A DNA stretch of 64,000 bases, from the IMG/VR virus record IMGVR_UViG_3300029310_000003, one strand, 5' to 3'. Source of the stretch: a virus. A model generated the notes under the pieces. The model saw only the letters and a list, made by a program, of their open reading frames with translations. It searched no databases and was not told the origin of the DNA. The position numbers and the translations under genes are program-made. Within the stretch, counting starts at the first letter, position 1, and every line of letters starts with the position of its first letter. Of this stretch, positions 2,673-18,137 are shown piece after piece.

Positions 2673-2700
2673 GGTACATAAAGTCAAAACCCGGTAGAAT
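2673..2700 (+). promoter_or_regulatory. cassette promoter-like motif, variant copy (GGTACA-N16-TAGAAT)
   Basis: GGTACA 2673-2678, 16-nt spacer ending CCCGG, TAGAAT 2695-2700. The motif ends 35 nt before ATG 2736. Confidence 0.5.
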
Positions 2701-2735
2701 AAAAAATAAAATCACCCAGATCGGGGGCATACAAT

Positions 2736-3035
2736 ATGAGCATCAAAAACCCAAACAGTGCGAAGACGGACGCGGAGCGTCGCGCACAAAATAAGTGGGA
2801 GCAGGCAAACCGCGTGACGCTGGGCGTGCGCCTGAGCAAGGCAGACGGCGAAGCGTTCCGGGCGTGGTGCGCGGCGCGTGGTCAGACGGTCAACGCGGCG
2901 CTTTCGTCCTACGTCGCGGACTGTCTGCGGGGGTCCGCTTTCCCGGATCAGGCCGCGCCGGAAAATTCCCCAGCTTCGCAAAAAACCGGAGCCGCCGAAG
3001 CTCCGAAAATTCCGGCCGAAGATTCCGGGGACTGA
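2736..3035 (+). CDS. ribbon-helix-helix (CopG/Arc-like) DNA-binding protein
   Basis: 'VTLGVRLSKADGEAFRAWCAARGQTVNAALSSYVADCL' fits a beta-strand/helix/helix RHH pattern. The C-terminal tail is low complexity. Confidence 0.55.
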   Translation: MSIKNPNSAKTDAERRAQNKWEQANRVTLGVRLSKADGEAFRAWCAARGQTVNAALSSYVADCLRGSAFPDQAAPENSPASQKTGAAEAPKIPAEDSGD

Positions 3036-3107
3036 ACAGCCGCTTTCCAAAAACTCCGGGGCCTGACGGCCTGAACAGCGCTGCCGGAAAATCCGGGGAA
3101 AATACAG

Positions 3108-3142
3108 AACAGCGTCCGAGAAAAACTCGGGCGCTGTTTTTT
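3108..3142 (+). terminator. rho-independent terminator
   Basis: aacagcgtccgag/ctcgggcgctgtt stem followed by a T6 run. Confidence 0.65.
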
Positions 3143-3152
3143 GCGCTTGAGC

Positions 3153-3180
3153 GGGACAAAAGCAGAAAACGGAGCAGAGT
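3153..3180 (+). promoter_or_regulatory. cassette promoter-like motif (GGGACA-N16-CAGAGT)
   Basis: GGGACA 3153-3158, 16-nt spacer, CAGAGT 3175-3180. The motif ends 42 nt before ATG 3223. Confidence 0.5.
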
Positions 3181-3222
3181 ATAAATCAGAAACAAAATCA
3201 CACCGAACGGAGGAACTTCAAA

Positions 3223-3714
3223 ATGACGAATAAAGAGCTTGGCAGCGCGATCCGCGCGACACTGAAAACGGCAGGCTATGCACCGCGTGATATATCGGTC
3301 CGTGTCCGGGACTGCGGCTACAGCACGAGCGCGAGCGTGACGATCAAGAACCCGGAAATCCGCCGGGAAAGCGTGGAGCGCCTGCTTTCCAAATTTGAGA
3401 GCATCGACCGCGACTATGCGACGGGCGAAATTCTGGCAGGCGGCAACTGCTACTTATTCGTAGACTACGCGGACGGAATTTTCGACGTACCGGCGCAGGA
3501 GATGGCAACGACGGCAGCGGGCATTCTCCGGGAAAAACGGGAATGCATCCGCATTTTCGACGGTCTTTACCTCTGCAACATCCACGGGCGCACGGAGCTT
3601 CGCCAGCAGAACGGCAGCGGAAGCTTTTCACGTCAGATCGGCGGCTTTTCGCTTCTGAATGAGCTGTGCATTGCCATGTATAAGTATGCAAAATTCGGGA
3701 CCATAGCGCCCTGA
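3223..3714 (+). CDS. hypothetical protein (163 aa)
   Basis: GGAGG RBS 8 nt upstream. The cassette has its own promoter-like motif and its own terminator. Confidence 0.65.
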   Translation: MTNKELGSAIRATLKTAGYAPRDISVRVRDCGYSTSASVTIKNPEIRRESVERLLSKFESIDRDYATGEILAGGNCYLFVDYADGIFDVPAQEMATTAAGILREKRECIRIFDGLYLCNIHGRTELRQQNGSGSFSRQIGGFSLLNELCIAMYKYAKFGTIAP

Positions 3715-3789
3715 CGGTGCGGCATGCGAACCAAAAAAACCAGAAAAACCAAGGAAAACGCAGAATCCGGCAAAACCAGAAAAAGCAGA

Positions 3790-3817
3790 AAGCCGTCCCA
3801 TTCGGGGCGGCTTTTTT
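3790..3817 (+). terminator. rho-independent terminator
   Basis: aagccgtccc/ggggcggctt stem plus T6. Confidence 0.65.
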
Positions 3818-3905: not shown

Positions 3906-3933
3906 GGGACAAATCCGGATTTCCGTGCAGAAC
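3906..3933 (+). promoter_or_regulatory. cassette promoter-like motif (GGGACA-N16-CAGAAC)
   Basis: GGGACA 3906-3911, CAGAAC 3928-3933. The leader 'cagaacaaaaactgtaaa' is nearly identical to the copy at 12387. Confidence 0.55.
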
Positions 3934-3972: not shown

Positions 3973-4074
3973 ATGAAGCCTGAAACTTTCAAAACGATCA
4001 TTCGCGGATTTCTGCTGACCGTTCTTTTCATCGTGATCTTCAGCGCGGACGCGCTGATCGAGTACATTTTCTGA
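3973..4074 (+). CDS. small single-pass membrane peptide (33 aa)
   Basis: AAGGAG RBS. 'FLLTVLFIVIFSADALI' is a hydrophobic span. Below the 60-aa cut-off of the ORF track. Confidence 0.45.
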   Translation: MKPETFKTIIRGFLLTVLFIVIFSADALIEYIF

Positions 4075-4148: not shown

Positions 4149-4176
4149 GGGACAAATCCGAAAAACCCGGCAGAAC
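4149..4176 (+). promoter_or_regulatory. cassette promoter-like motif (GGGACA-N16-CAGAAC)
   Basis: GGGACA 4149-4154, CAGAAC 4171-4176. The motif ends 33 nt before ATG 4210. Confidence 0.55.
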
Positions 4177-4209: not shown

Positions 4210-4854
4210 ATGAAAAATTTCGAGACCATCGCCAAAACCATTGAAAACCAGCTGAATTCCGGAAATTCCCGTATGACCATCTGTACGCAGAACGAATTCG
4301 GCGGCGTGTATTTTCTGCACGTCACCATGACGGGCGCAAAGATCGAGCCGTATGCGCAGTACAAGGAAAGTCTCCTGCTTCTGTTCAAGAAGCGCGGAGG
4401 CCGCACGGTGTACGGGATGCGCATCTACGGCGAGAAGCCCATCGCGATTTTCAGCGGCTGGCCGGAAACGACCTACGAGCAGCCGAAAAGCTTCTGGTGC
4501 TTTGATAAAAATCTGTTTTACGGCCTTGTGGACGGATTCCCGCAGGAGCTGAAGCTTGCGGAGGAATCGGAGCGCGTCCACCTCGCAGAAATTCAGGCGA
4601 AGGGCAAGGTCTACCGCGTCATCACGATGAACGAAGCCCGGCGCATGACCATCGCAGAATTCCAAACCGCCGACGAATTGAAAGCCGCCTTTGAATCCAC
4701 GGGAGAATTCCACAGCGTATCCTGCCGGGCCGAGCTGCAAGGCGCACCGAAGCTAAAGAATTTCTGCGGGCCGATGTACGACGGAACGGACGAAGCCGGA
4801 AATTCGGTCATCCGCTACGAATCGCGCGAGGTGTACGAAATTCTGAGCGCATAA
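4210..4854 (+). CDS. hypothetical protein (214 aa)
   Basis: AGGAGG RBS; ORF track entry. Confidence 0.65.
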   Translation: MKNFETIAKTIENQLNSGNSRMTICTQNEFGGVYFLHVTMTGAKIEPYAQYKESLLLLFKKRGGRTVYGMRIYGEKPIAIFSGWPETTYEQPKSFWCFDKNLFYGLVDGFPQELKLAEESERVHLAEIQAKGKVYRVITMNEARRMTIAEFQTADELKAAFESTGEFHSVSCRAELQGAPKLKNFCGPMYDGTDEAGNSVIRYESREVYEILSA

Positions 4855-4878
4855 AATTGAAAGAATTCACGGGAAAGC

Positions 4879-4906
4879 GGGACAAACCCCGCTTTTTCTG
4901 TAGAAC
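4879..4906 (+). promoter_or_regulatory. cassette promoter-like motif (GGGACA-N16-TAGAAC)
   Basis: GGGACA 4879-4884, TAGAAC 4901-4906. The motif ends 35 nt before ATG 4942. Confidence 0.55.
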
Positions 4907-4941
4907 AGAAACCAGAAAAACCAAACAAGGAGGCATTTCAA

Positions 4942-6141
4942 ATGTATTACATCATCAACCGCGAGACGGAAAAGCTCGAGCTTCACTTTTCCAAAGAGGA
5001 ATATCAGGCGCTTCCGGAAGCGGACAAGGCAAAAATCAAAAGCAACTTTCTGTTTTCCAAGCGAGGCGGCTGCTGGGTGAGCCGTGCGAAGCGTCCGAAT
5101 CTCTACTACGCCGAAAAAACGGCGAAGGAGCTGGGCGCGGAGGATCGCGGAAAGACCGGGGAGCTTCTGACCTTCGAGGAAAAAATGGCGCGACAGGCGG
5201 AGCGGGCCGCAGAGCGGGCCGACCGCATGGAGGCGCGTTCGGAGAACGCCAGAGAACGGGCGCAGGCGCTGCAAGCGCCCATCAACGCCATGCACGGAGA
5301 CATCGCGTTTTTCACGCAGCCGAACATCAACACGTCATCTGGCCGTGCCTTTACGCGGCAGCGGGAAAGAATGTTTGCAGCCTTCGACCGTGGCTTTGAG
5401 GAATTCAAAAAATCCGAGTACTACGCAGAGCGCGCAGAAATCGCCCGCAGAACAGCGGACCAGAAAAACGCCGGGGATAAAGCCTTCTGTGACCGCCGCG
5501 TAAAGGACGCAGAAAAGGCCATCAAAAAGCTTCGGGAAAATCTGGACCATTACCATGTCATGCTGGAATGCGACGCGATGGGAGAAGCCCAGACGCGCTG
5601 GGACGGTACAAAAATCGAGCGTTCGGAGATCGAGAACTGGATCGACGATACGGAGGACCGTCTGGAATCGGAAATTTCGAAGCTCTGTTATTATCAGTCG
5701 TGCATTGACGCATTGGGCGGCGTGCAGTTCAGCAAAGAGAACATCAAGCCGGGCTATGTCGTGAAGATCAAGCATTACAACGACTGCACCGTCCTGCGGA
5801 CAGGCCCGAAGAACTTCACCTATCGCACGCCGAGCGGCTTTGACCTGACAGCAGCCTACGCCGAAATTCTGGAGATCGTCAAGGCGGAGGAAGCGAAAAA
5901 ACCGGTACAGCCCTTCAAGCCCGGAGAAATTTTCACCGTTCGCAGACTTCCGGCAGGCGCATGGACTCCGGAGCAGTGGGAGATCGTCAAGGCGACCGCA
6001 ACGACCGTCACGCTGAAAAACCAGGCGACCGGTGAGATCATCCGCAGAACGCCGAAGATCCGCTCGACGTGTGGGGGCGACAAGTGGGTCCTTTCGCTCG
6101 ATGATTACAGTGAAACCGTTTACCGCAATATTGGAGAATAA
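4942..6141 (+). CDS. hypothetical protein with Arg/Glu-rich coiled-coil core (possibly DUF3560-like)
   Basis: AAGGAGG RBS. 'ARQAERAAERADRMEARSENARERAQAL...HGDIAFFTQP' resembles DUF3560 proteins of mobile elements. That assignment is from memory and has not been searched. Confidence 0.6.
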   Translation: MYYIINRETEKLELHFSKEEYQALPEADKAKIKSNFLFSKRGGCWVSRAKRPNLYYAEKTAKELGAEDRGKTGELLTFEEKMARQAERAAERADRMEARSENARERAQALQAPINAMHGDIAFFTQPNINTSSGRAFTRQRERMFAAFDRGFEEFKKSEYYAERAEIARRTADQKNAGDKAFCDRRVKDAEKAIKKLRENLDHYHVMLECDAMGEAQTRWDGTKIERSEIENWIDDTEDRLESEISKLCYYQSCIDALGGVQFSKENIKPGYVVKIKHYNDCTVLRTGPKNFTYRTPSGFDLTAAYAEILEIVKAEEAKKPVQPFKPGEIFTVRRLPAGAWTPEQWEIVKATATTVTLKNQATGEIIRRTPKIRSTCGGDKWVLSLDDYSETVYRNIGE

Positions 6142-6159: not shown

Positions 6160-6187
6160 GGGACAAAGCTCCCCTTCCCGGCAGAAT
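6160..6187 (+). promoter_or_regulatory. cassette promoter-like motif (GGGACA-N16-CAGAAT)
   Basis: GGGACA 6160-6165, CAGAAT 6182-6187; upstream of ATG 6239. Confidence 0.5.
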
Positions 6188-6238: not shown

Positions 6239-6430
6239 ATGAAAGTAAATGCCAACATCGGCGGAAAAATCTATCCGCGCAAGATTCACAAAACGACCGT
6301 CGAATATTCGGACGGGACGCGGCAGCGTTTCAATTGCATTTCGGTTTCGAGCCGGGAATACGTCGTGCAGACCTGCAACGGGATTCCGGTCAGCGTCTAT
6401 CCGCTGATCTCATTTCTTCTGCTTCCGTAA
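6239..6430 (+). CDS. hypothetical small protein (63 aa)
   Basis: Internal ATG of track ORF 6032..6430, preceded by a GGGAGG RBS. Confidence 0.45.
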   Translation: MKVNANIGGKIYPRKIHKTTVEYSDGTRQRFNCISVSSREYVVQTCNGIPVSVYPLISFLLLP

Positions 6431-6610
6431 AAAATTTCCACGGCATCTGGAAAACCGGAAAAGGCTGTGCTATGATGGAAAAACAGGGGCGGCAGGATTC
6501 CAACAATCGGAGCCGCCCGAATCACAGAACAGAACATTTTCGTGACCTCACGAAAATGCTGCAAAACCAAGAAAAATAATGAATTCCAAGAAAGGGTGGG
6601 AGGACAGAAC

Positions 6611-7360
6611 GTGGCGGAACTGACTTTGATCTTTTGTGTAGTTGTCGTTGTGATTATTTTCGCAATATGTTCCGGAGCCGATCAGGCGAAGGAAAAACTG
6701 GCCATCATGGAAGCAAGCAATCAGAAAATCGAAGCAAGCAAGAAGGAGCTTGTATCGGCAGGTTTTCAGATTGAAAAAGAGGCCAAGGAACCAAGCGGAA
6801 ATTTCTATCTCGCCATCGACCCGAAAAACAAGCGCTGGGTGCTGGTCATACCGAATCTGCCGCATCCATACGTCTATAAGTTCAAAGAATTGATCTCCTA
6901 TGAGCTGGTAGACGACGGAGAAACGACGTATTCGAGCAATACGGGAAAAGCACTCGTCGGCGGACTTCTCTTCGGAGCCGCAGGCGCGGTCGTTGGAGCA
7001 GCCGGCAAGAAAAAAGTAAAAACGACCTGCAAGGATATGCATATCGACTTGAATATAAACGTCATAAAAAGCCCCATGCAGGTCTTGCAGATCAACGACG
7101 CGGAAATCTCGCGGGATTCCGAGCTGTATAAGCAGAACCTGGCATTCGCAAAAAACGTCATGGCCATGCTTGCATACATCAAAGAAAACGCGGAGCTTTC
7201 GGAGCCGGAGAAACCCCATCCGGAGCAAAAGCAGCTCGAAAGCCAGCAGAGAACGGGCGATATCTACGCAGAGATTGAAAAGCTCCACACTCTGAAGGAA
7301 AAGGGCATCATCACCGAAGAGGAGTTCCAGAAAAAGAAGCGTTCCCTTCTCGGCATATAA
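6611..7360 (+). CDS. membrane protein with C-terminal SHOCT domain
   Basis: GTG start after a GGGTGGGAGGA RBS. N-terminal TM 'LTLIFCVVVVVIIFAI'. The C-terminal 'IEKLHTLKEKGIITEEEFQKKKRSLL' matches the SHOCT pattern. Confidence 0.7.
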   Translation: MAELTLIFCVVVVVIIFAICSGADQAKEKLAIMEASNQKIEASKKELVSAGFQIEKEAKEPSGNFYLAIDPKNKRWVLVIPNLPHPYVYKFKELISYELVDDGETTYSSNTGKALVGGLLFGAAGAVVGAAGKKKVKTTCKDMHIDLNINVIKSPMQVLQINDAEISRDSELYKQNLAFAKNVMAMLAYIKENAELSEPEKPHPEQKQLESQQRTGDIYAEIEKLHTLKEKGIITEEEFQKKKRSLLGI

Positions 7361-7363
7361 CAA

Positions 7364-7387
7364 AAGCCGCCCAACCGGGCGGCTTTC
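7364..7387 (+). terminator. hairpin aagccgccc-aacc-gggcggctt (copy 1 of a perfect 24-nt direct repeat)
   Basis: Lies directly after the stop of the SHOCT gene. The identical 24-mer recurs at 7728-7751. Confidence 0.5.
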
Positions 7388-7389
7388 CG

Positions 7390-7418
7390 TTGACAAGGCG
7401 AAATTTCGACGATAAAAT
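7390..7418 (+). promoter_or_regulatory. sigma-A-type promoter of toxin mRNA 1
   Basis: TTGACA 7390-7395, 17-nt spacer, TAAAAT 7413-7418. Confidence 0.55.
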
Positions 7419-7495
7419 AAAAAAGCCCCATTGGGGCGGGGCGCTGCCAAGGAGGCGGCAGGCGGTCGGCACTTCCTGAAAAGGAGGTGTTGCTT

Positions 7496-7582
7496 ATGGT
7501 GACATATTCCGATCTGATTCAGATTGGTATTTTGATCGTAGGCATTTGCTCTCTGGTTTTCCAGATAAGCAAAAAGAAATGA
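7496..7582 (+). CDS. 28-aa holin-like toxin peptide (type I toxin-like), copy 1
   Basis: MVTYSDLIQIGILIVGICSLVFQISKKK: one TM span plus a KKK tail, typical of the 'putative holin-like toxin' peptides of Firmicutes. The AGGAGG RBS sits inside an 8-bp hairpin (cacttcct-GAAA-aggaggtg, 7470-7489). Confidence 0.7.
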   Translation: MVTYSDLIQIGILIVGICSLVFQISKKK

Positions 7583-7665
7583 CCGTCCCAAGTTAGCCGC
7601 TCGGACGGTCATTCTTTGTAAAATGATCTTTAACTACGGCTGACTGCCTGCGGCAGCGCCCTTGT
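7570..7665 (-). ncRNA. candidate antisense (antitoxin) sRNA of TA-like module 1
   Basis: Minus-strand TTGACT (7693-7698) followed by TAATATAAT (about 7668-7676). The transcript would run convergently into the shared terminator. Its 5' segment gggcgctgccgcaggcagtcagcc is conserved in copy 2. Confidence 0.4.
7578..7613. terminator. bidirectional terminator hairpin shared by toxin mRNA 1 and its antisense RNA
   Basis: 11-bp stem aatgaccgtcc/ggacggtcatt. A T-run follows on the minus strand; the plus-strand T-run is weaker. Confidence 0.6.
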
Positions 7666-7727
7666 TTATTATATTAACAGCTTGCACAAAAAAGTCAAGC
7701 GAAAAGAGGAAAACAATAAACACTGAG

Positions 7728-7751
7728 AAGCCGCCCAACCGGGCGGCTTTC
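7728..7751 (+). repeat. copy 2 of the perfect 24-nt direct repeat aagccgcccaaccgggcggctttc
   Basis: Identical to 7364-7387. The two copies bracket TA-like module 1 with a 364-bp period. Confidence 0.8.
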
Positions 7752-8217
7752 GCCATCTATCAAGCCTCGCAGGATGCGAAAACCAGCGCAGCTTGAGATC
7801 GAGTCGAATGCGCGGATGCATCTGGCGTGCCGTAGGAAGCCATAGAAGCAGAGAACAAGGTGTTATGAGTATCCTATCATTATTTCATCAAGTTCGCGGC
7901 TTGTAGAGCCTCTGAGGGCGCGAGGCTTGCTGGGAAAACGCCACGAAAAAGGCAGCAAGTCGGAAAAACAAGAACAGTCTCGAAAATCTCACCCTGAACT
8001 CCACCGTAAAGGTGAGCAGACACGGCGAAGAAATCCTGCTGCAAAAAGCGACCATCGCAGGCCGAAAGCGTCCCGTTTGGGTATCGTGGTCTGACCGCAT
8101 CTACTACACCACCGCGCAGGTGAAAAACCGAGGATATAAGCTTCACACAGTCGCTTGAAATCCCGAAAAATCCTGCTATACTGAAATAAAACGGAAAAAG
8201 GAGGAAGCAAAACGCGA

Positions 8218-8445
8218 ATGTTTTATAAACCCGGCGAATACGAGATCAATGGCGGAGAATTTTTCTCCGCCAAAACCGGCGAACCTCTGAACAGCGGCGA
8301 TCTGGCGGGTCTGGTGGCTTACTGCGAACCGAACGACATCTCCCCTGTCGAAACCTACGGCAAAGAAGTTGTGTCCATGCACCGTGAAGTAGTGACCTTG
8401 GACGGCAAGAAGATTCTGTACAAAGGCGCTGTCGTGAGAATTTGA
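8218..8445 (+). CDS. hypothetical protein (75 aa)
   Basis: AAGGAGGA RBS. A TTGAAA-N16-TATACT promoter-like sequence lies at about 8155-8182. Confidence 0.5.
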   Translation: MFYKPGEYEINGGEFFSAKTGEPLNSGDLAGLVAYCEPNDISPVETYGKEVVSMHREVVTLDGKKILYKGAVVRI

Positions 8446-8479
8446 ATTTTGTAAACAGAAAGAGAACGGAGGAGAACAC

Positions 8480-9193
8480 ATGGCAATCATAAAATGCCCC
8501 GAGTGCGGGCACGACGTAAGCACCATGGCGACCGCCTGCCCAAACTGCGGCTATCCGATCAGCAGCATGAATCTGAAAGCGCCTGAACAGCCGGAACACA
8601 CAGAACTGATGGAAGAACCGAAACCGCAAAACGACGCATTGGACGAATTTGACATGATCGATAGCGAGCTGGAACAGCAGCAGAAAGAATCATCCGAAGA
8701 AAAAACGGGAGCCTCAAAAACTGCGCTTGCGTGGACAGCGGTAACGTGTATTATCTCCTTTGCTGTTATCGCATTTGTAATATCGATCGGTTCAAAATCA
8801 TCCAATTCTCATAGCAAAGCGAAATCAAACGATAATACATCGTCATCATATTCTTCAGGATCGTCGTATTCTTCCGGAACCAACGGATACGATTACGCCG
8901 AAGAATATAAAATTTTATATCTTGAACTGGAAGATCTGGAATTAAAATCAAGCGATTATAAAATGTACATGATTCTTTCCGGTGCGGTTAGGAACACCGG
9001 AACAAAAACGTGCTATTTTGTGAAGGTCAAGACAACATTCTATGACGAAAACGGAATATCGATTGATATTGGAGATACCTATGCCTGTGGTGCGGAAGGA
9101 ATAGCGCCGGGTGAAAGCTCGAAATTTGAGATTCGCGTTGATTATGACGAAAGGATTGAAACATCCAGAACAAAAATATACGATTGCGATTAA
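8480..9193 (+). CDS. zinc-ribbon / TM / FxLYD-like domain membrane protein
   Basis: N-terminal 'KCPECGHDV...CPNCGYPI' zinc ribbon, TM 'AWTAVTCIISFAVIAFVI', Ser-rich linker, and a C-terminal beta-rich domain '...VKTTFYDENG...GESSKFE'. Confidence 0.7.
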   Translation: MAIIKCPECGHDVSTMATACPNCGYPISSMNLKAPEQPEHTELMEEPKPQNDALDEFDMIDSELEQQQKESSEEKTGASKTALAWTAVTCIISFAVIAFVISIGSKSSNSHSKAKSNDNTSSSYSSGSSYSSGTNGYDYAEEYKILYLELEDLELKSSDYKMYMILSGAVRNTGTKTCYFVKVKTTFYDENGISIDIGDTYACGAEGIAPGESSKFEIRVDYDERIETSRTKIYDCD

Positions 9194-9260
9194 ACAGAAA
9201 ATCCGCCCATCTGGACGGCTTTTCTCATGCTTCCGAAATCACAAATTTTATGTACTTCGC

Positions 9261-9288
9261 GGGACAAATCACATATTTCGTGTAGATA
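9261..9288 (+). promoter_or_regulatory. cassette promoter-like motif (GGGACA-N16-TAGATA)
   Basis: GGGACA 9261-9266, TAGATA 9283-9288; upstream of ATG 9377. Confidence 0.4.
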
Positions 9289-9376
9289 AGAAAACAGAAA
9301 ATTTCTCCAATTCCGCGAAATAAGTATTGACAGTTATATAACTATTATGGTATAGTGATATCGAAAGGAGGGCAGC

Positions 9377-9535
9377 ATGGAACAGAACGATAAGGCATTG
9401 AGCATGAAGTTGCCGCAATCCCTGTATGATCGTCTGAAAGTGCAAGCGGACAGGATGAATATATCAGTCGCATCCGTTGTACGTATCGCTTGCACAGAGT
9501 ACCTTTCAAAAACAGAGGAAAGCAAAAATAAATAG
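9377..9535 (+). CDS. ribbon-helix-helix (CopG-like) protein, 52 aa
   Basis: GGAGGG RBS. 'LSMKLPQSLYDRLKVQADRMNISVASVVRIACTEYL' fits the RHH pattern. Below the ORF-track cut-off. Confidence 0.6.
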   Translation: MEQNDKALSMKLPQSLYDRLKVQADRMNISVASVVRIACTEYLSKTEESKNK

Positions 9536-9538
9536 AAT

Positions 9539-9580
9539 AAACGCTGCGTCCCTTCCGACCAAAGACTGAACGCAGCGTTT
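9539..9580 (+). terminator. hairpin aaacgctgcg/cgcagcgttt
   Basis: 10-bp stem directly after the stop codon; the T-run is short. Confidence 0.45.
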
Positions 9581-9713
9581 ACCGACAATCACGCAATTTC
9601 TCGCGCAATCTCTGTATATATTTATACAAGACACGCCGCGAAATTGCAAGTGTTACTTTTGCTTTTCGCGGAATTTTTGTACCCATTTTTAAGTGACAGG
9701 AGGAATTTTGAAC

Positions 9714-10487: not shown

Positions 10488-10581
10488 GAACGGAGAGATC
10501 GAAAAACCGCCGAAATTCCAACGAATCCAAATTTGGTTCGGTTGATTTCTTCATCCCTCCAGCGTTTCATTGTTGACATAA

Positions 10582-10606
10582 AAATGTACAAAAAACATTT
10601 GCCGCT
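10582..10606 (+). promoter_or_regulatory. operator-like palindrome AAATGT-N7-ACATTT + GCCGC (copy 1)
   Basis: AAATGTACAAAAAACATTTGCCGC lies 5 nt upstream of TGTTATGCT (extended -10, 10609-10617). A near-identical 25-mer is at 13484-13508. Confidence 0.55.
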
Positions 10607-10657
10607 TCTGTTATGCTGAAAGTAGAGAACACCAAGCGAAACAGAAAGGAGAAATTC

Positions 10658-11467
10658 ATGGAACTACAAAAAATCAACAACACAGACATCACCATCAAGG
10701 AATACAGCGGTCAGCGCGTAGTGACCTTCAAGGACATCGACGCAGTCCACGGCAGACCAGACGGAACGGCAAAGCGAAACTTCCGTTCTAACCGAGAGCA
10801 CTTTATCGAGGGCGAAGATTTCTTCATGCTTGACCAACCGGACGAAATTCGTTCCCTTGGTATTCAGCGTCCGCAGGGTGGCACACCGGATAGCGTAATT
10901 CTCATCACGGAATCCGGCTATCTCATGCTGGTAAAATCATTCACGGATGATTTGGCGTGGAAAGTCCAACGCGAACTCATTAAAGGATATTTCCGTGCGA
11001 AAGAAGCCGCGCAGCTCTCCCCTGCCGAGCAGCTGCTTGCGCAGGCACAATTTCTGGTCGAGCAGGAGCGCCGTCTTAAGGCTTTGGAAGCCAGCAGCGC
11101 CGAAACCTCGCAGAAAATGGATACCGTCCGGGATGCGCTGGGTACCATGGTCGCATCGTCCATAACGGCGGAGAACTGGCAATCGCAGCTGAACCGCAGC
11201 GTCCGTGCATTTTGTATGCAGACGGGATTCGACTTCCATAAAACCTTCCAGCAGCTCTACAAGGAGACCGAAACGACCGCAGGCGTAAAGCTGGACGTCC
11301 GCGTCAAGTTCGCCAAACAGCGTCTGCAAGCAAACGGCGCGACGCAGGCCGAGATCACCGCCGTTTCCAAACTCAGCATCATTGCCAAGGACAAAAAGCT
11401 TCGTGAGATCTTCGGGAATCTTTTCAACCGCATGGTCGCACGATATAAACTCAGCGGAGAAATTTGA
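10658..11467 (+). CDS. phage antirepressor, ORF6N (KilA-N-like) + ORF6C
   Basis: AAAGGAG RBS. 'IKEYSGQRVVTFKDIDAVHGRPDGTAKRNFRSNREHFIEGEDFF' fits the ORF6N pattern. 'LLAQAQFLVEQERRLKALE' is ORF6C-like. Confidence 0.75.
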   Translation: MELQKINNTDITIKEYSGQRVVTFKDIDAVHGRPDGTAKRNFRSNREHFIEGEDFFMLDQPDEIRSLGIQRPQGGTPDSVILITESGYLMLVKSFTDDLAWKVQRELIKGYFRAKEAAQLSPAEQLLAQAQFLVEQERRLKALEASSAETSQKMDTVRDALGTMVASSITAENWQSQLNRSVRAFCMQTGFDFHKTFQQLYKETETTAGVKLDVRVKFAKQRLQANGATQAEITAVSKLSIIAKDKKLREIFGNLFNRMVARYKLSGEI

Positions 11468-11501
11468 GGAAGCACACCAAGTGCCAGAAAGGAAAATCAC
11501 C

Positions 11502-11666
11502 ATGGAAAAAGAACTTATCAAAATGATCGAAAAAACCAAGAATCAGGAAGCATTTCTGAACTTCCTGAAATTCTGCCTCCCGCGCGTGGAATCGGGTCTG
11601 ACGGTCGAAGAGATCTGGAACGAATGGCAGATCATCCGGAGCCACAGCGAGGAGCCACGCGTATGA
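11502..11666 (+). CDS. hypothetical small protein (54 aa), paralog of 19043..19216
   Basis: Internal ATG with an AAAGGA RBS. Shares the pattern KNQ..F..F..FC..R......TVE.IWN.W with the minus-strand 57-aa protein. Confidence 0.5.
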   Translation: MEKELIKMIEKTKNQEAFLNFLKFCLPRVESGLTVEEIWNEWQIIRSHSEEPRV

Positions 11667-12085
11667 CCGCACAGAAGATGGACGCGCTGGACATTGAAAT
11701 TTACCAGCTGATGAAGGAACTGGGCATTCCGGCCAGCATGACGGGCTATGACTACCTCCGCAGCGCCATCCGCCGCAGCGCAGAAAACGGCTGTCCCAAA
11801 ATTTCGACCATGAGCGCGGACGGGATCTATCCGAGGATCGCCGAAGAATTCGGCGTCAGCTCAAACAGCGTGGAGCGTGCGATCCGGAAGTCCATCGGAG
11901 TCGGAGTCGAGCGCGCCGGGGGCAGCAAATTTTATAAGGTGTTCGGCTTGAGCATGGACGCGGACAAAGCCCGTCCGACGAATGCGCAGTTCATCCGGCA
12001 GGCGGCGTTGGAGGCTCTCTGCCGGGAATCTGAAAAAAATCTGAAAACAGCGGGACAAAAGCGTGAAACGTGGCAGATTGGATAA
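11663..12085 (+). CDS. Spo0A C-terminal (DNA-binding) domain protein lacking a receiver domain
   Basis: 'GIPASMTGYDYLRSAI', 'IYPRIAEEFGVSSNSVERAIRKSI' and 'ARPTNAQFI' parallel Spo0A 'GVPAHIKGYLYLREAI', '[24 protein letters not shown]' and 'KPTNSEFI'. The start overlaps the upstream stop. Confidence 0.75.
   Translation: MTAQKMDALDIEIYQLMKELGIPASMTGYDYLRSAIRRSAENGCPKISTMSADGIYPRIAEEFGVSSNSVERAIRKSIGVGVERAGGSKFYKVFGLSMDADKARPTNAQFIRQAALEALCRESEKNLKTAGQKRETWQIG
12052..12079 (+). promoter_or_regulatory. cassette promoter-like motif (GGGACA-N16-CAGATT)
   Basis: GGGACA 12052-12057, CAGATT 12074-12079. Lies in the 3' end of the preceding CDS, 47 nt before ATG 12127. Confidence 0.45.
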
Positions 12086-12126: not shown

Positions 12127-12348
12127 ATGTGTGAAAGCAAAAATCTGGTCCCCCTCCCCATGACGGGGCCTGAGAATCTTTTTGAGAACGTCGTCAATCG
12201 ACACCACGACGAGGTGAAAGCGGAAGTCCGTGCGGAGGCGCGCCACAAGCGGGAAAAATTCATCACCCGCTGGCTGATCGCGGCGCTGCTTGCCGGAATG
12301 GCCGCGTCTGCCTACGCAGGCTTTCTGATCGGCGCATCCATCGTCTGA
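12127..12348 (+). CDS. C-terminally membrane-anchored small protein (73 aa)
   Basis: AAAGGAGAAG RBS. C-terminal TM 'WLIAALLAGMAASAYAGFLIGASIV'. Confidence 0.5.
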   Translation: MCESKNLVPLPMTGPENLFENVVNRHHDEVKAEVRAEARHKREKFITRWLIAALLAGMAASAYAGFLIGASIV

Positions 12349-12364
12349 AAAATTTCAAGAAACC

Positions 12365-12392
12365 GGGACAACCCCGAAAAACCCGGCAGAAC
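12365..12392 (+). promoter_or_regulatory. cassette promoter-like motif (GGGACA-N16-CAGAAC)
   Basis: GGGACA 12365-12370, CAGAAC 12387-12392; upstream of ATG 12440. Confidence 0.55.
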
Positions 12393-12439: not shown

Positions 12440-13135
12440 ATGGCAAAGGAAAACAAGGATATCAAGCGGTACATCAAGCTCACGTTTATCGAGCCGGTAC
12501 TTGGCACATGGCCCAGCAATGAAAATGTCGCACGCGACTTCATCGCGTCCAAGTCCCCGGACGCGGCCACCATTGAAGAGGAGATCGCCGCCATCGGCGC
12601 AGAGAACTATTCCGACAAGGCGATGACGGTATTCCCGCGCGTCGATGGAAAGCCCGTTTTCTACGACTACCAGATCAAGGGCTTTTTCAAGGATACCTGT
12701 GGCGCACTCTCCCGCGCAAAGCACACAAAGTCCAGTGCCCTGAAGGCGTACAAAAAGGTGATCGACGGCATGATCTTTCCATTCCCGAGAACCATCGCCA
12801 TTCAGGTAAACGGCGAGATCGGCGAATGCCAGCGTCCACTTCGTGCGCAGACCGCGCAGGGCGAACGTGTGAGCCTAGCAAATTCCGAGGAAATTCCGGC
12901 GGGCAGCACGATCCGTTTCGGCGTCAAGCTCAACGATCCGGCGCACGAGGCTCTTTTGAAGGAATGGCTCGATAACGGCATCGACCGTGGCCTCGGCCAG
13001 TGGAGAAATTCTGGAAAGGGCCGATTCATCTATAAGATGCTGGACGAGGAAGGAAATAGCCTCGGAGGAACGGCAGAGGACTACGAAGCGCGGAAGTTGG
13101 AGGAAAGCTTCTTCCCGGAGGAAAAGGCGGTCTGA
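12440..13135 (+). CDS. hypothetical protein (231 aa) with C-terminal G-rich loop 'GLGQWRNSGKGRF'
   Basis: GGAGG RBS; ORF track entry. No confident family assignment. Confidence 0.65.
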   Translation: MAKENKDIKRYIKLTFIEPVLGTWPSNENVARDFIASKSPDAATIEEEIAAIGAENYSDKAMTVFPRVDGKPVFYDYQIKGFFKDTCGALSRAKHTKSSALKAYKKVIDGMIFPFPRTIAIQVNGEIGECQRPLRAQTAQGERVSLANSEEIPAGSTIRFGVKLNDPAHEALLKEWLDNGIDRGLGQWRNSGKGRFIYKMLDEEGNSLGGTAEDYEARKLEESFFPEEKAV

Positions 13136-13363: not shown

Positions 13364-13483
13364 GAACAGCAAAGGATACGCATGGCCGTGCGCGGATACG
13401 ATCAGCAAAGCAACGACAAAGCGGCGCATAGTAAGGCAAAGGCAAAAATCAAAAGACAGCAGAAACCATTCCGGAACGCATCC

Positions 13484-13508
13484 AAATGTGCAAAAAACAT
13501 TTGCGGCG
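13484..13508 (+). promoter_or_regulatory. operator-like palindrome AAATGT-N7-ACATTT + GCGGC (copy 2)
   Basis: AAATGTGCAAAAAACATTTGCGGC lies 5 nt upstream of TGGTACAAT (extended -10, 13511-13519), about 25 nt before the integrase ATG. Confidence 0.55.
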
Positions 13509-13542
13509 TTTGGTACAATAAAATCAGAAAGGACGGAAACAG

Positions 13543-14628
13543 ATGAGCTTCCCCAAAGCGTATGAAAAATTTCGGTCGGCCATGATCGCCTACGAAGATA
13601 ACCTCCGGGCGTTGGGACGTTCCGGAGTCACGATCAAAAATCAGGAACAGATCTTCAAAAATTTCTCCGGCTTCCTTCTGGAAAACAAATTGTGGGATCA
13701 TGAGGAGGGCTTTCCGGAGATCCTCGCATGGCGCGACCAGATGCGCCGGGACGGCAAAAAACCGTCCACCATCAAGCAGTATCTGACCGTCCTTTCTGCC
13801 ATGTACAATTTCGCCAGCTCCGAAGAACTCGGCGAAAACCGCTGGTACGACCGGAATCCCGTCGCAAAGCTCCTCATGCCGGATACGCGAAAGCTCGACA
13901 AGCGACCGTATGAGCAATTTTTGACCGACGAACAGGTCATGCTTCTCTGGCGAAATAACCCTCCCGCGAAAACCGTGGAAAGCCCGAAATTCTGGCCGCG
14001 AAATTACGCCATCGTCATTTTGCTTCTGACAACGGAGCTTCGCAACAGTGAGCTTCTGGCGCTGACGCCTGCGGATCTCGACTGGGAAAATTCCGAGCTG
14101 TACGTCGAGCACGGCAAGGGCGATAAATTCCGTCCGGTCGAATTCCCGCCGCTTGCGCAGACCGCCGTCCGGCTGTATCTTCGCAGCGGACTGCGTCCGG
14201 CGGCCGCAGGCGACCATGACCCGCTTTTTGGCACGGAGGCAACCAAGGAATTCAAGGGAACCAATCGGGGCGCAGAATGGCACGCAGGCACACGTCAGTG
14301 GCTTTCGGACGTCGTGAAGCGCCATGTAAAAACCGTGACCGGCGTGGATATGATCCGTTCGCACGATTTGCGGCACGTCGGCGCACGGCTCGATCTCAAC
14401 AGCGGCATGAGCTTTGAGGAGCTTCAGGCAAAACTCGGCCATGAATCCGTAGCGACCACGCAGATCTATTCCGGCAAGCTGACCAGCCGGAAAAACCGCC
14501 GTATGACGAAGATCGTGCAGGAGGAGAAGGAACGGCAGGCGCAGCGGAACGTCCTGCGTCTGGAAGAGTCGGGAGATGATTTTTTCGAACAGCTCCGGCT
14601 GAAACAGCCCCGGCCGGAGATCGCCTGA
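13543..14628 (+). CDS. int: tyrosine recombinase / phage integrase
   Basis: 361 aa. N-terminal SAM-like core-binding region. C-terminal 'HDLRHVGARL...LGHESVATTQIYSG' carries the HxxR...H...Y catalytic signature. Confidence 0.9.
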   Translation: MSFPKAYEKFRSAMIAYEDNLRALGRSGVTIKNQEQIFKNFSGFLLENKLWDHEEGFPEILAWRDQMRRDGKKPSTIKQYLTVLSAMYNFASSEELGENRWYDRNPVAKLLMPDTRKLDKRPYEQFLTDEQVMLLWRNNPPAKTVESPKFWPRNYAIVILLLTTELRNSELLALTPADLDWENSELYVEHGKGDKFRPVEFPPLAQTAVRLYLRSGLRPAAAGDHDPLFGTEATKEFKGTNRGAEWHAGTRQWLSDVVKRHVKTVTGVDMIRSHDLRHVGARLDLNSGMSFEELQAKLGHESVATTQIYSGKLTSRKNRRMTKIVQEEKERQAQRNVLRLEESGDDFFEQLRLKQPRPEIA

Positions 14629-14941: not shown

Positions 14942-15015
14942 GTGCGTGTAGTTTAATGGCAGAACATCAGACTTCCAATCTGATGGTGGGAGTTCGATTC
15001 TCCTCACGCACTCCA
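14942..15015 (+). tRNA. tRNA-Gly (anticodon UCC), CCA encoded
   Basis: Manual cloverleaf: acceptor gtgcgtg/cacgcac, D-stem gttt/gaac, anticodon stem tcaga/tctga with loop cTTCCaa, T-arm gggag-ttcgatt-ctcct, then tCCA. Confidence 0.85.
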
Positions 15016-15706: not shown

Positions 15707-16025
15707 ATGAAATCATGCGGCATTTGGCAAAGGGCAGTTACGAGCAGCTGTCCCAAGGCCGTTCGATTCGGTCACGCCGCACCATCGTAAAAATCGTGTG
15801 ACTAAGGTTTTCGTAGAACGCCGCGCATTTTCAAGATGCAAATCGTTCAGCTTGCCGGAGAAAGCCAACGCGTGGCAGATCCGGATGAAGTCACTTGAGA
15901 AGCCGAACTGACAAAACCGGCCGCACCGGAATCCGGTGTGAAGCGGAAACGGCAGGATGCCGCAAAGAACTGCCCGTTGGCCAGCGCGCATGGCCTCGCG
16001 TCCGGTACGTCAAGCCGGAAACGAC

Positions 16026-16101
16026 GGGCCGTTATCTCAAAGGCTAGAGCAACTCGCTCATAACGGGTAAAATCTCGGTTCGACTCCGGGACGGCCCACC
16101 A
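16026..16101 (+). tRNA. tRNA with CAU anticodon (elongator Met or Ile2), CCA encoded
   Basis: Acceptor gggccgt/acggccc, anticodon stem actcg/cgggt with loop ctCATaa, T-arm ctcgg-ttcgact-ccggg, then aCCA. Lacks the three G-C pairs of an initiator anticodon stem. Confidence 0.8.
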
Positions 16102-16129
16102 TGAAATTTTCGGGAAAGGAGGAAAAACC

Positions 16130-16402
16130 ATGAACAAGGAAGCACTTGCACAGGCCGTAGCCAATCGCACGAATATGCCGAAGGGCGCAGCGCTGGAATC
16201 CATCGACGCGGTTTTCGAAAGCATCCGTGAAGCGCTGATCTCGCACGAGACGGTGAACATTCCGGGCTTCGGAAAATTCGAAGCGCCGTATAAGGCGTCC
16301 AGAGTCGCAAGAAACCCGGCGACCGGCGGAACCATTTCGGTTCCTGCGCATCACGGCGTGAAATTCGCGCCCGCGAAGGCGCTGAAGGATGCCGTACATT
16401 AA
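16130..16402 (+). CDS. HU/IHF-family DNA-binding protein
   Basis: 90 aa. 'MNKEALAQAVA...ESIREALISHETVNIPGFGKFEAPYKASRVARNPATGGTISVPAHHGVKFAPAKALKDAV' is a canonical HU sequence. AAGGAGGA RBS. Confidence 0.9.
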   Translation: MNKEALAQAVANRTNMPKGAALESIDAVFESIREALISHETVNIPGFGKFEAPYKASRVARNPATGGTISVPAHHGVKFAPAKALKDAVH

Positions 16403-16471
16403 GGAACCTCTGAATAAATCCGGGCGAAAGCCCGGAGTACATAAACGCCAGAAAAATGAAAGGAGCAGCCC

Positions 16472-17017
16472 ATGGAACAGGAAATTCATCGCGGAGACGT
16501 ATTCTGGATCGCGGATGCACAAACGGCGGTCGGCTCCGAGTACACAAAAACCCGGCCGGCCGTGATCGTGTCCAACGAAGCAAATAACCGATACTCCGCA
16601 AATCTGGAGATCGTCTGGCTCACAACGGCCAATAAAAAGCCGCTTCCGACGCACGTCACGCTCTATTCCGCACCGCGCGTATCCGTCGCGCTTTGCGAGT
16701 GCGTCACAACGATCTCCAAGGAGCGTCTCCGGGAATATTATTGCACGCTCACGTCGGAGGAAATGGCGCATATCGACCGTGCCATCCGCATTTCGCTGGG
16801 GCTTCCGGAGCCTGCCGAAAAACCGGAAAAAACCGCATCGTCCGAAAAAACGCCGGATGATCTCCAGCTTTCCAACCTCCGCAGCGACTATCAGCTCCTG
16901 CTGAAAAAGCACGACGCTCTGCTTGCGCAGCAGGCCGTCTATGAGAAGATCTGCATGGCCTTCATTCCAAACTGGACGCCGCAGGCCAAAGCCGCAGAGA
17001 ACGGGAGCCGCGTATGA
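16472..17017 (+). CDS. MazF/PemK-family endoribonuclease toxin with ~65-aa C-terminal extension
   Basis: 'RGDVFWIADAQTAVGSEYTKTRPAVIVSNE...LEIVWLTTANKKPLPTHV...TISKERL' matches the PemK/MazF core. Residues from about 115 to 181 are an extra Pro/Glu-rich plus helical tail. Confidence 0.8.
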   Translation: MEQEIHRGDVFWIADAQTAVGSEYTKTRPAVIVSNEANNRYSANLEIVWLTTANKKPLPTHVTLYSAPRVSVALCECVTTISKERLREYYCTLTSEEMAHIDRAIRISLGLPEPAEKPEKTASSEKTPDDLQLSNLRSDYQLLLKKHDALLAQQAVYEKICMAFIPNWTPQAKAAENGSRV

Positions 17018-18123
17018 TCTACCTCGACCACGCAGCGACCTCTCCCCTTCTGGCCACCGCCCGCCGGGAATTTTACCGGGCCTCGCAATTCAGCTGGGGC
17101 AACCCAAATTCCGTCCATTCCTTCGGGATCGCAGCCGCGCGGGAGCTGGAAAGAGCGCAGAGGATCGTCGCCTATTGCCTTTCATGCAAGCCGGAACAGG
17201 TGATCTTCACCTCCTCCGCCACGGAAAGCTGCCGATTTGCCATGAACGCCATGATGTACGAATGCGGCAGCGTCCATATTTCCAGCTTTGAGCATAAGGC
17301 CGTTTCTGCCGGATGGGAAGACAGTTTCCGCTTTTTCGGGATCAACCGCAGCACCTCCGGCTTCGCACATATCCATACCGGCAACGAAACGGGCGAAATT
17401 TATGACCTCGCAAAAGCATTCGAGCCGTACACCGTCTGTTTTTCGGACTGCACGGCAGCCATGGGAAAAGCGCCCCTCGACTTCCGGCATGGAAAATGGT
17501 CGTACATCGCGGGCGGCGGACATAAATTCGGCGCACCCATCGGCATCGGCGTCCTGATCGCCAGAAAACCGGAGGTGATCCGAGAGCTTTTCCATCCGGC
17601 AACGCCCGCCGTTCCTCTGGCCGCAGCCCTCGCGCAGGCGCTTTTCTTCCGCACGGAGCATATCGCAGAATTTGCGGATACCGCCGGATACTTGCATGAC
17701 CGCCTGATCGATGGTATCATGGAGGAAATTCCAGACGCGCAGCTGAACGGCACGAAATATCGTGGAAACGAAAAAACACAGTCGCCCTATATCACGAGCA
17801 TTTCTTTCCCAAACATCGAAAATCATGCGCTTGTTCTGCGGATGTCCGCCGACGGCCTGATGGCGTCCTCCGGAGCCGCCTGTTCCAGCGGAGAAAACGA
17901 GCCGTCTCCGGTGCTTCTGGAATCCGGCTATCCCGCCGCCCGCGCAAGGAGCGCCGTCCGCTTTTCTCTGGACTATAAGCTCGACCCCTGCGCTTACGAA
18001 TTTTCGCACGATCTTGGCATCGACCGCCGCCGGGACGAAGCCATCATCGACCACGCCGTCAAAATCGTCGCGCAGAACGTCCGGGAGCTGAAAAAATTAT
18101 CTCCCGCGCGGGACAAAGCGTAA
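17014..18123 (+). CDS. class V aminotransferase / cysteine desulfurase (NifS/IscS-like)
   Basis: 'IYLDHAATSP', 'NPNSVHSFG', 'FTSSATES', 'HTGNETG', the PLP-Lys motif 'GGHKFGAPIGIGVL' and the catalytic Cys 'SSGAACSSG'. Its ATG overlaps the MazF stop (ATGA). Confidence 0.8.
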   Translation: MIYLDHAATSPLLATARREFYRASQFSWGNPNSVHSFGIAAARELERAQRIVAYCLSCKPEQVIFTSSATESCRFAMNAMMYECGSVHISSFEHKAVSAGWEDSFRFFGINRSTSGFAHIHTGNETGEIYDLAKAFEPYTVCFSDCTAAMGKAPLDFRHGKWSYIAGGGHKFGAPIGIGVLIARKPEVIRELFHPATPAVPLAAALAQALFFRTEHIAEFADTAGYLHDRLIDGIMEEIPDAQLNGTKYRGNEKTQSPYITSISFPNIENHALVLRMSADGLMASSGAACSSGENEPSPVLLESGYPAARARSAVRFSLDYKLDPCAYEFSHDLGIDRRRDEAIIDHAVKIVAQNVRELKKLSPARDKA

Positions 18124-18137
18124 AATACCCGTAGAAT
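18110..18137 (+). promoter_or_regulatory. cassette promoter-like motif (GGGACA-N16-TAGAAT)
   Basis: GGGACA 18110-18115, TAGAAT 18132-18137. The motif ends 43 nt before ATG 18181. Confidence 0.5.

Follow-up and report, generated by a model that had tools for sequence, protein, structure and literature searches.

The window, meaning the whole 64-kb stretch of IMG/VR virus record IMGVR_UViG_3300029310_000003 that was analysed, carries ten copies of a two-box sequence motif, each in front of a gene on the plus strand, and a minus-strand gene (396..1112) whose product is very probably, judging from its family profile and predicted fold, a divergent sigma factor similar to the extracytoplasmic function (ECF) type. 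The proposal considered here is that this protein reads the ten sites as promoters. The window is part of the genome of a temperate siphovirus-like phage of approximately 84.2 kb with an Oscillospiraceae (Clostridia) host. Contigs of 84,169-84,261 bp that come from different samples and begin at different points encode the identical sigma protein, and the genome is therefore circular or circularly permuted. Homologues in GTDB belong to Oscillospiraceae metagenome-assembled genomes and to 'Firmicutes bacterium CAG:124'. A megablast search of 2-20 kb against GenBank phages gave two patches of 46-79 nt only, so no close relative is described among these phages.

The minus strand encodes Rha, endolysin, tape measure, tail and portal proteins followed by RecT, RusA and ThyX at 19-64 kb, and YopX, PAPS reductase, SNF2 helicase and a methylase past window position 1. 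The plus-strand block at 2.7-19 kb lies antisense to these genes and comprises the ten cassettes headed by the motif, together with Bro-N, ORF6N, a protein with a Spo0A_C domain only, an integrase, two tRNAs, MazF and a cysteine desulfurase. A scan of ten proteins at 54-64 kb gave neither a further sigma nor a late activator.

The motif array and its genes

The pattern GGKACA-N16-YAGADH has exactly ten matches in the window, all on the plus strand and all at the positions given in an earlier note on this DNA (Table 1); they span 2673-18137. The chance level obtained from dinucleotide-preserving shuffles is 0.11 matches, with a maximum of 1. Scored with a weight matrix covering positions -2..+33, the ten sites reach 29.9-46.1 bits while the runner-up on either strand of the 64 kb reaches 7.1 bits, and the motif copies therefore form a discrete set rather than the upper end of a graded series. 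Of the ten GGGACA hexamers on the plus strand, nine are inside full motifs; the tenth is the site at 20381, which had been described as a -35-only copy and consists of the first box alone. None of the 14 GGGACA hexamers on the minus strand of the window has a second box, and the matrix and hexamer searches of both strands agree with the earlier statement that the late region has no minus-strand copy. The search was extended by 10 kb past window position 1 without finding a copy, and approximately 74 of the 84 kb are therefore covered by the motif search.

The consensus of the aligned copies is tGAAAAAwtT (-21..-12) .. gC-GGGACAAA-N13-G-YAGAAy-A.AAA. In the first box, GGGACAAA, G1, G2, A4, C5 and A6 are invariant and positions 7-8 are A in nine of the ten copies; gC directly precedes the box and the tract at -21..-12 upstream of it is A-rich. 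The 13-nt stretch between the boxes shows weak base preferences only. The G at motif position 22, directly before the second box, is invariant, as are A24, G25 and A26 of the second box (YAGAAy), which is followed by an A-rich leader. The spacer is 16 nt in all copies. CCCGG at the end of the spacer, earlier said to be frequent, is seen in four of the ten copies, and the leader sequence CAGAACaaaaactgtaaa is indeed present at both 3928 and 12387. The heptamer AAATCAC is found approximately 10-15 nt before the ribosome-binding site (RBS) in four of the ten leaders (after 2673, 3153, 3906 and 12365) and also inside the spacer of the copy at 9261. It could mark a further site of regulation, or else be left over from a common ancestor of the leader modules.

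All ten copies are co-oriented with the plus-strand gene downstream, at 33-88 nt. Re-measured distances from the end of the motif to a start codon with RBS are 33-51 nt for nine copies and 88 nt for the copy at 9261, as noted before. Between that copy (copy 7) and its gene lies a canonical extended -10 housekeeping promoter (9327..9356). The copies at 12052 and 18110 overlap the last codons of the upstream open reading frame and are not intergenic in the strict sense; copy 8 lies within the end of the Spo0A_C-like gene (ends 12085). Copy 1 is the most housekeeping-like variant. It faces the promoter of the sigma operon, and its GGTACA is kept at that position in relatives.

The genes downstream of the ten copies mainly encode small proteins without assigned function, including two ribbon-helix-helix (RHH) proteins, in line with the first description of the cargo. 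Comparison of the cassette cargo proteins with PHROGs, NCBIfam and PADLOC gave no informative match.

Table 1. Coordinates of the motif copies and of the features of the sigma operon (window numbering)
Feature	Position	Strand	Description
Motif copy 1	2673..2700	+	GGTACA-N16-TAGAAT; 35 nt upstream of RHH-like gene 2736..3035
Motif copy 2	3153..3180	+	GGGACA-N16-CAGAGT; 42 nt upstream of 3223..3714 (163 aa, no assigned function)
Motif copy 3	3906..3933	+	39 nt upstream of 3973..4074 (33-aa hydrophobic peptide)
Motif copy 4	4149..4176	+	33 nt upstream of 4210..4854 (214 aa, no assigned function)
Motif copy 5	4879..4906	+	35 nt upstream of 4942..6141 (399 aa, DUF3560)
Motif copy 6	6160..6187	+	51 nt upstream of 6239..6430 (63 aa)
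Motif copy 7	9261..9288	+	88 nt upstream of RHH gene 9377..9535
Motif copy 8	12052..12079	+	47 nt upstream of 12127..12348 (73 aa, C-terminal hydrophobic segment)
Motif copy 9	12365..12392	+	47 nt upstream of 12440..13135 (231 aa, no assigned function)
Motif copy 10	18110..18137	+	overlaps stop codon of 17014..18123; 43 nt upstream of 18181..18522 (113 aa)
Divergent ECF-like sigma factor (predicted), proposed reader of the ten promoters	396..1112	-	238 aa; family profile and predicted fold
Three operon genes upstream of the sigma gene	1209..2427	-	1669..2427 (252 aa), 1382..1612 (76 aa), 1209..1385 (58 aa)
Sigma operon promoter (sigma-A type, perfect consensus)	2480..2508	-	TTGACA-N17-TATAAT; consensus scan
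Five operator-like repeats TGATTAATC(A/G)yAT	2487..2654		2487-2502, 2523-2537, 2545-2559, 2607-2620, 2641-2654
Hairpin just after the sigma stop codon	342..368	-	without clear T-run; sequence read directly

A terminator ahead of every cassette was considered and rejected, most cassettes being without one of their own. A strong hairpin with a T-run just upstream is found at the copy at 3153 only, and weaker ones at 9261 and 12365. The earlier claim that several cassettes have their own terminators thus stands for these copies but not for the others, where the preceding stop codon belongs to the A-tract, approximately 20 nt ahead of the first box. The motif itself has no shared hairpin: for seven of the ten copies the fold is no better than that of shuffled sequences (six with |z|<1, one with z=-0.99) and the three that fold well differ in shape from one another. 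This argues against N4-type promoters and attC-like sites.

The ten sites score poorly as housekeeping promoters. In a consensus scan only copy 10 reaches 9/12, and the first two bases of the -35 box are GG in all copies, as opposed to the TT of the housekeeping TTGACA. The last base of the -10 box is T in five copies, C in four and A in one, and the first is C in six. Canonical TTGACA-N17-TATAAT sites are found in the same region of the window, and the two observations together indicate a distinct promoter class. This class and its sigma-70/ECF-type geometry favour the earlier suggestion, as far as sequence can, that the motif is a promoter for a non-housekeeping sigma.

The sigma-like protein, its operon and its relatives

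The gene at 396..1112, which the earlier note called sigma-like, lies on the minus strand and diverges from the array; the assignment is upheld by the profile, by the matches of family members and by the predicted fold. A search of 1.84 billion representatives gave 186 relatives of the product at the 50%-identity cluster level, and 281 word-index matches were obtained for the family. Searched alone, the window protein mainly detects its C-terminal helix-turn-helix (HTH) domain (AsnC, LuxR and MarR types) together with sub-threshold sigma matches. A shallow alignment, like the single sequence, mainly found the HTH among the solved structures; a deeper and more diverse alignment reached the sigma-2 domain. 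The best solved-structure match of this family profile, built from 50 diverse homologues, is the sigma-H structure 3mzy (E 5e-6). The ECF sigma CnrH is matched with E 2e-5, profile positions 81-222 corresponding to residues 44-183, from sigma-2 through sigma-4, and positions 76-223 align with residues ~40-186 of CnrH, sigma-E, AlgU and SigW (E 2e-5 to 0.03). TIGR02937 is matched by 39 of the 50 family members (best 1.6e-9), the Pfam family Sigma70_ECF (PF07638) by 16 and Sigma70_r4_2 by 12. The sigma-H equivalog model of NCBIfam is not matched by the product, which by this measure is not a sigma-H orthologue.

The protein consists of sigma-2-like helices up to approximately residue 140, a disordered linker (141-174) and a sigma-4 HTH domain (177-237). 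Regions 2.1-2.4 of the sigma-2 domain are recognisable by the family sequence profile, with DDAQTVAAEAW taken to be the region 2.2-like helix and LAFILFAACTQAVHTIARAEYRH to be region 2.3/2.4. In the AlphaFold model (pLDDT 79) the N-terminal domain is helical, and a linker connects it to a C-terminal domain of four helices that includes the HTH of region 4.2. When the model was compared with the PDB using Foldseek, most of the best matches, including the top 14 (probabilities 0.69-0.99), were ECF sigmas; the open complex of phiEco32 gp36 (9m7y_F) was found at rank 38. The isolated sigma-4 domains 3hug and 3vfz superpose on the C-terminal domain with an rmsd of 2.1-4.4 A. Relative to ECF sigmas the protein has an N-terminal extension of approximately 45 residues. 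The extension (residues 1-70) is absent from short homologues of 194-196 aa; its weak resemblance to the anti-CRISPR AcrIIA3 (E 6e-4, 20 bits, far below the cut-off; 5 of 50 members) and to phrog_8305 is probably noise.

The sigma gene is the fourth gene of a minus-strand operon that starts at a perfect TTGACA-N17-TATAAT promoter. Two of the three upstream genes were searched for in other loci, and these two (252 aa and 76 aa) were found in most close relatives; domain scans of the upstream genes gave no match to an anti-sigma domain. The operator-like repeats sit between the divergent operon promoter and motif copy 1, and the repeat at 2487-2502 is a perfect palindrome inside the spacer of the promoter. 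Since the repeats overlap it, this promoter is probably repressible, and the adjoining RHH gene 2736..3035 is a candidate for the protein that binds them. L010 and the distant L038 are arranged alike, with operators at a near-consensus housekeeping promoter that diverges from the first cognate promoter. In L001 a motif is located 2.9 kb upstream of the sigma on the same strand, and on this sequence evidence autoregulation may exist in that lineage. The hairpin after the sigma stop codon is a possible weak terminator. Directly after the sigma gene, at ~243-306, there is an alternating purine-pyrimidine GC-rich tract of approximately 60 nt (gtgcgcacatacgcgcacgggcgcatacacgcgcgacgcgcgcgcacgcacgc), situated in a non-coding gap of about 1 kb that reaches beyond window position 1. 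Candidate roles are those of an origin, a packaging site or a Z-DNA-prone element; a similar but shorter tract follows the sigma homologue in phage MT835520.

Conservation of the motif was analysed in 25 IMG/VR loci with a sigma 50-96% identical to that of the window, and the GTDB loci L001-L003 were added for pooled counts. The motif is on the strand opposite the sigma gene in 22 of the 25 loci; L007 and L014 have no copy above the matrix threshold and L027 has its copies on the sigma strand. The relatives contain 95 distinct instances, 59 with N16 and 36 with N15, and a scan of spacer lengths for GGGACA...YAGA gave one case of N14 and none of N12, N13 or N17-20. In the pooled set 191 of 199 occurrences are opposite the sigma gene. 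An RBS and a start codon are found within 80 nt for 80 of the 95 instances (median 39 nt), and both boxes are constant across the relatives while the spacer sequence changes.

L001-L003 and L027, where the sigma is 46-50% identical, still carry the motif, here ahead of genes on the same strand as the sigma. Of 13 tested proteins, regulator candidates included, the sigma alone is common to these four loci; homologues of p113 and Rha (~30% identity) are present in some of them. The Spo0A_C-like, RHH, p252 and p76 proteins are absent from all four and were rejected as partners of the motif. A search of viral contigs for related loci with P0183 and P0178 gave no match. The co-occurrence of motif and sigma gene that the earlier note proposed to look for across related phages is thus found, and it is strengthened by the covariation described below.

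Among close relatives, whose sigma is 90-96% identical, whole cassettes have been gained or lost. In L006 promoter copy 9 is joined, 11 nt after the second box, to the integrase leader (12403 joined to 13486) and is thus located approximately 80 nt upstream of the integrase gene. Most mosaic breakpoints among the close relatives are not at the motif, and recombination through the promoter modules is therefore possible at most. The integrase has an extended -10 promoter of housekeeping type of its own (TGgTACAAT), approximately 30 nt upstream of the start codon within 13475-13542, which is retained in L006 with copy 9 fused just upstream. In MT835520 the sequence GAACAG followed by a GC-rich hairpin is repeated between small plus-strand genes at 40.7-43.5 kb; (C/T)AGAACAG is also frequent in the leaders of the window.

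Sigma and promoter vary together. Eight lineages were compared, some of them with 1-4 sites; L041, L043 and L040 were left out, being too short or without an array. In the aligned recognition helices of sigma-4 three types can be distinguished, and three types of -35 box sort with them. The helices SKSAVQRR, SRSAVQRR, SKSAAQRR and SKSAVDRR (window, L001, L035 and L037) go with GGGACAAA, the helix SQRAVSKR (L039 and L042) goes with GGTTCTAA, and SHQALSKR and SHTAINKR (L038 and L044) go with GGTTGCCA and GGTTTCCA. The boxes of L044 are GGTTTCCA...GGCGTTAT. In L038, where the sigma is 40% identical, the sigma gene follows a housekeeping promoter and diverges from 26 small genes; the array has 12 copies of GGTTGCC-N16-GGCGTATA (0 expected by chance), all opposite the sigma gene and with an A/T tract upstream. 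L035 and L037 keep GGGACAAA and have the second boxes TTACTA, TAACCC, TATCTA and TCACTT, and in these lineages, with a kept -35 but a changed -10 box, the sigma-2.4 segment differs. As eight lineages were compared and some have few sites, the evidence is qualitative. The covariation is the strongest argument that the phage sigma, rather than a host factor, would be the reader of the motif. In L042 a second sigma-like gene (4579-5250), matching Pfam Sigma70_r4 and RNA_pol_A_CTD, is present a few kb downstream of the family sigma.

Reading of the array, rival explanations and other features of the block

The ten sites are taken to be the promoter regulon of a phage-encoded ECF-like sigma from a family without prior characterisation, with a probability of roughly 0.7. 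This reading builds on what is observed: an exclusive motif set and its placement with respect to genes, its conservation with a spacer of constant length but variable sequence, a protein whose profile and fold are sigma-like, and the covariation of sigma and promoter. Host polymerase with the housekeeping sigma would start at 2508..2480 on the minus strand, where the operator repeats overlap, and transcribe the four-gene operon, the last gene of which (1112..396) would provide the ECF-like sigma. This would displace the host sigma on the core polymerase. The sigma-4 helix SKSAVQRR would then read GGGACAAA and the sigma-2 domain G-YAGAAY 15-16 bp downstream, and the upstream A-rich tract may serve as an UP element. 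Transcription would start approximately 30-45 nt ahead of ten plus-strand genes antisense to the lytic and structural genes. The genes switched on would mostly be small and would include two RHH proteins, the DUF3560 protein, small hydrophobic peptides and, in a relative, the integrase. Starts at the sites, and their use by the phage rather than a host sigma, are suggested by the sequence data; the timing would presumably be early after infection or induction, and a role of the cargo in host takeover or counter-defence is a guess.

Several observations weigh against the regulon. The window protein taken alone scores 18.3 bits with TIGR02937 (cut-off 42.9), 18.5 with PF07638 (21.1) and 16.6 with PF08281 (25.7); it is below every curated sigma threshold and is therefore called divergent ECF-like and not filed in a curated ECF group. 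The whole-chain Foldseek values are weak (E 0.009-0.3, TM-scores 0.2-0.36), the low TM-scores arising because two domains on a flexible linker are placed differently. There is no motif ahead of the sigma gene on the minus strand of the window, unlike most ECF sigmas. A GGGACA-type search, dyad counting, a relaxed matrix and scans for TTGACA...TAGAA and GAACAG repeats revealed no recognisable set of repeated promoters in MT835520 (L033), which is the sole GenBank phage with a homologue (46% identity); the sigma-4 helix of this homologue, DRSTISRR, differs from those of the other lineages. The lineages used for covariation are few and not statistically independent, and the boxes resemble sigma-H promoters of host type.

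The last point leads to the main rival, which is considered unlikely: the host sigma-H (Spo0H) would read the motif and the cassettes would be prophage accessory genes switched on at stationary phase or sporulation. Among C. difficile SigH promoters (n=41, Table 3 of the cited paper) the commonest -10 form is G-TAGAAT, as in the example AGAGGACAATTACCTCCAGATGTAGAAAT, and the -35 box here shares GGA plus A/T with AGGAwww (PMC7438776). Compared with the sigma-H boxes RNAGGAWWW/RNNGAAT, the -35 sequence GCGGGACAA fits at 6-7 of nine positions and the -10 sequence G-YAGAAY in five of ten copies. A Spo0A_C-only gene on the phage hints at an interest in sporulation control, and lysogeny-type genes (integrase, toxin, tRNAs) are present in the array. 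The spacing, however, is different. Measured from GG of the -35 box to GAA of the -10 box, every window copy has a distance of 23 nt and the 95 copies of the relatives have 22-23 nt, but of 29 C. difficile SigH promoters 28 have 20-21 nt, and these ranges do not overlap (PMC7438776). The boxes of related phages, moreover, are not sigma-H-like (GGTTGCC...GGCGTATA, GGTTCTAA...) and track the recognition helix of the phage sigma.

Slightly less probable still is that the housekeeping sigma uses the -10-like box and that the 238-aa protein is an HTH activator which binds GGGACAAA in place of a -35 box (class II). This would agree with the single-sequence searches, with copies 1 (GGTACA...TAGAAT) and 10, which approach a housekeeping promoter, and with the constancy of GGGACAAA in L035 and L037 while the downstream box changes. 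That box, however, covaries with the sigma-2.4 segment as well, and it frequently begins with C and ends in a base other than T. The last -10 position is the second most critical base for the housekeeping sigma. One protein in contact with both boxes would agree with the invariant G and with the strictness of the spacing (15-16 nt), the profile aligns region 2 through 4 with solved ECF sigmas and thus extends beyond the HTH, and the whole-length fold matches are to sigmas. A quite improbable explanation is that the repeats are not promoters but recombination or cassette-junction sites (integron-attC-like or boundary sites) or sites for a repressor that silences the array. Whole cassettes are gained and lost, the L006 junction is 11 nt after a motif, an integrase is found inside the array, and stop codon, A-tract and motif recur as one module. 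Against this stand the missing common hairpin, the unlike shapes of the well-folding copies and the mosaic breakpoints, most of which are away from the motif; strict co-orientation, a constant distance to RBS and start, and two boxes with a fixed spacer are properties of promoters. A role as promoter and a role as a homology patch in recombination are mutually compatible.

If the regulon reading holds, a family annotated only as 'hypothetical protein' and present in abundant human-gut Oscillospiraceae phages has a promoter code by which co-regulated genes, candidates for takeover and anti-defence functions, can be picked from sequence in uncultured phages. Several diverged pairs of sigma and promoter make the relationship between recognition helix and -35 box testable and may supply orthogonal expression parts for gut Clostridia. 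The sigma-H-like boxes and the Spo0A_C-only gene in the same array raise a testable link to host sporulation control. A broader reading is tentative and on balance doubtful: phages of gut Clostridia would carry a fast-diverging ECF-like sigma family, each lineage having a private two-box code (GGGACAAA/YAGAA, GGGACAAA/TWACY, GGTTGCCA/GGCGTATA, GGTTCTAA/...) that wires hypervariable antisense single-gene cassettes, probably serving to take over the host or to counter its defences, with the window code corresponding to sigma-H boxes shifted by 2 bp and the promoter module doubling as a homology patch for exchange. If so, the 2-bp shift would insulate the array from host sigma-H or let the phage sigma compete, and the pairs would be natural orthogonal sigma/promoter pairs for genetically intractable bacteria.

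Further features of the plus-strand block were observed. The Spo0A_C-only gene (11663-12085) encodes the DNA-binding C-terminal domain of Spo0A (E 1e-22) without a receiver domain. Just downstream of the integrase gene (13543..14628) are tRNA-Gly(TCC) at 14942-15015 and tRNA-Met(CAT) at 16026-16101, both on the plus strand, one of which may mark the attachment site. At 16472-18123, also on the plus strand, the gene of a MazF/PemK-like toxin shares 4 nt with the start of an SspA/DndA-like cysteine desulfurase gene (PADLOC E 1e-50); no antitoxin or further Dnd/Ssp genes were seen nearby. The region 6500-11500 is a low-GC island (45-49%, compared with 53-57% elsewhere) with SHOCT, zinc-ribbon, Bro-N and ORF6N genes and canonical housekeeping promoters at 7390, 8155 and 9327. 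The island is partly absent from the close relatives L004-L006, which suggests a separate acquisition.

Comparison with known promoter classes and systems

The ECF (group 4) sigmas, such as sigma-E, sigma-W and CnrH (1or7, 5wuq, 4cxf), have the same build of sigma-2 and sigma-4 domains with a flexible linker and without region 3, and their promoters likewise have two boxes approximately 16 nt apart. The -35 box of the array differs in being without the AAC core and the -10 box in being YAGAA rather than CGT; the phage protein also has the N-terminal extension, no anti-sigma partner recognisable in domain scans and no autoregulation in the window. The -10 box CGTATA of L038 resembles the sigma-W consensus. 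The earlier comparison with ECF promoters therefore holds for the two-box geometry, while the boxes themselves are nearer to those of Firmicute sigma-H (AGGAwww ... GTAGAAT) than to GGAAC/CGT. The likeness to sigma-H promoters includes the GGA plus A/T-rich -35 box, the (G/A)TAGAAT -10 box and the best profile match, 3mzy; the difference is the spacing, which is 2 bp wider here (22-23 nt compared with 20-21 nt).

T4-type PeSL elements and the host-takeover module of SPO1 are rows of small, fast-evolving genes with their own repeated promoters and a content that is shuffled between relatives. Those promoters are read by the host housekeeping sigma, and PeSLs carry stem-loops that mediate recombination, whereas no shared stem-loop was found in the ten copies here.

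SigN (ZpdN) of pBS32, a plasmid/prophage-like element of B. subtilis, is similar in design, being a weakly sigma-like protein borne by a mobile element with a regulon confined to that element (PMC6751061). Its gene has a strong housekeeping promoter under a repressor, LexA in that case and putatively the binder of the operator repeats here, and its consensus was, like the motif here, derived from many element-borne promoters (PMC6751061). The SigN consensus, e.g. TTTACGTTT...GATATAAT, is unrelated to the motif, SigN also has a SigN-dependent autoregulatory promoter whereas no motif precedes the sigma operon here, and SigN triggers cell death after DNA damage (PMC6751061).

Known phage sigmas with private promoters come mostly from virulent phages of model hosts and serve middle or late genes. 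SPO1 gp28 and gp33/34, T4 gp55 and phiEco32 gp36, which belong to the sigma-70 family, likewise steer the host core polymerase (PMC9429907, PMC12276001, PMC8948821). They are made from host-sigma promoters and serve a private promoter class, as is proposed here, but act on middle and late genes (replication, structural) of virulent phages. The phage of the window, in contrast, is temperate (integrase), its structural genes are without the motif, and the proposed regulon is an antisense array of small accessory genes. It is thus a new example of a known viral strategy and not a new mechanism.

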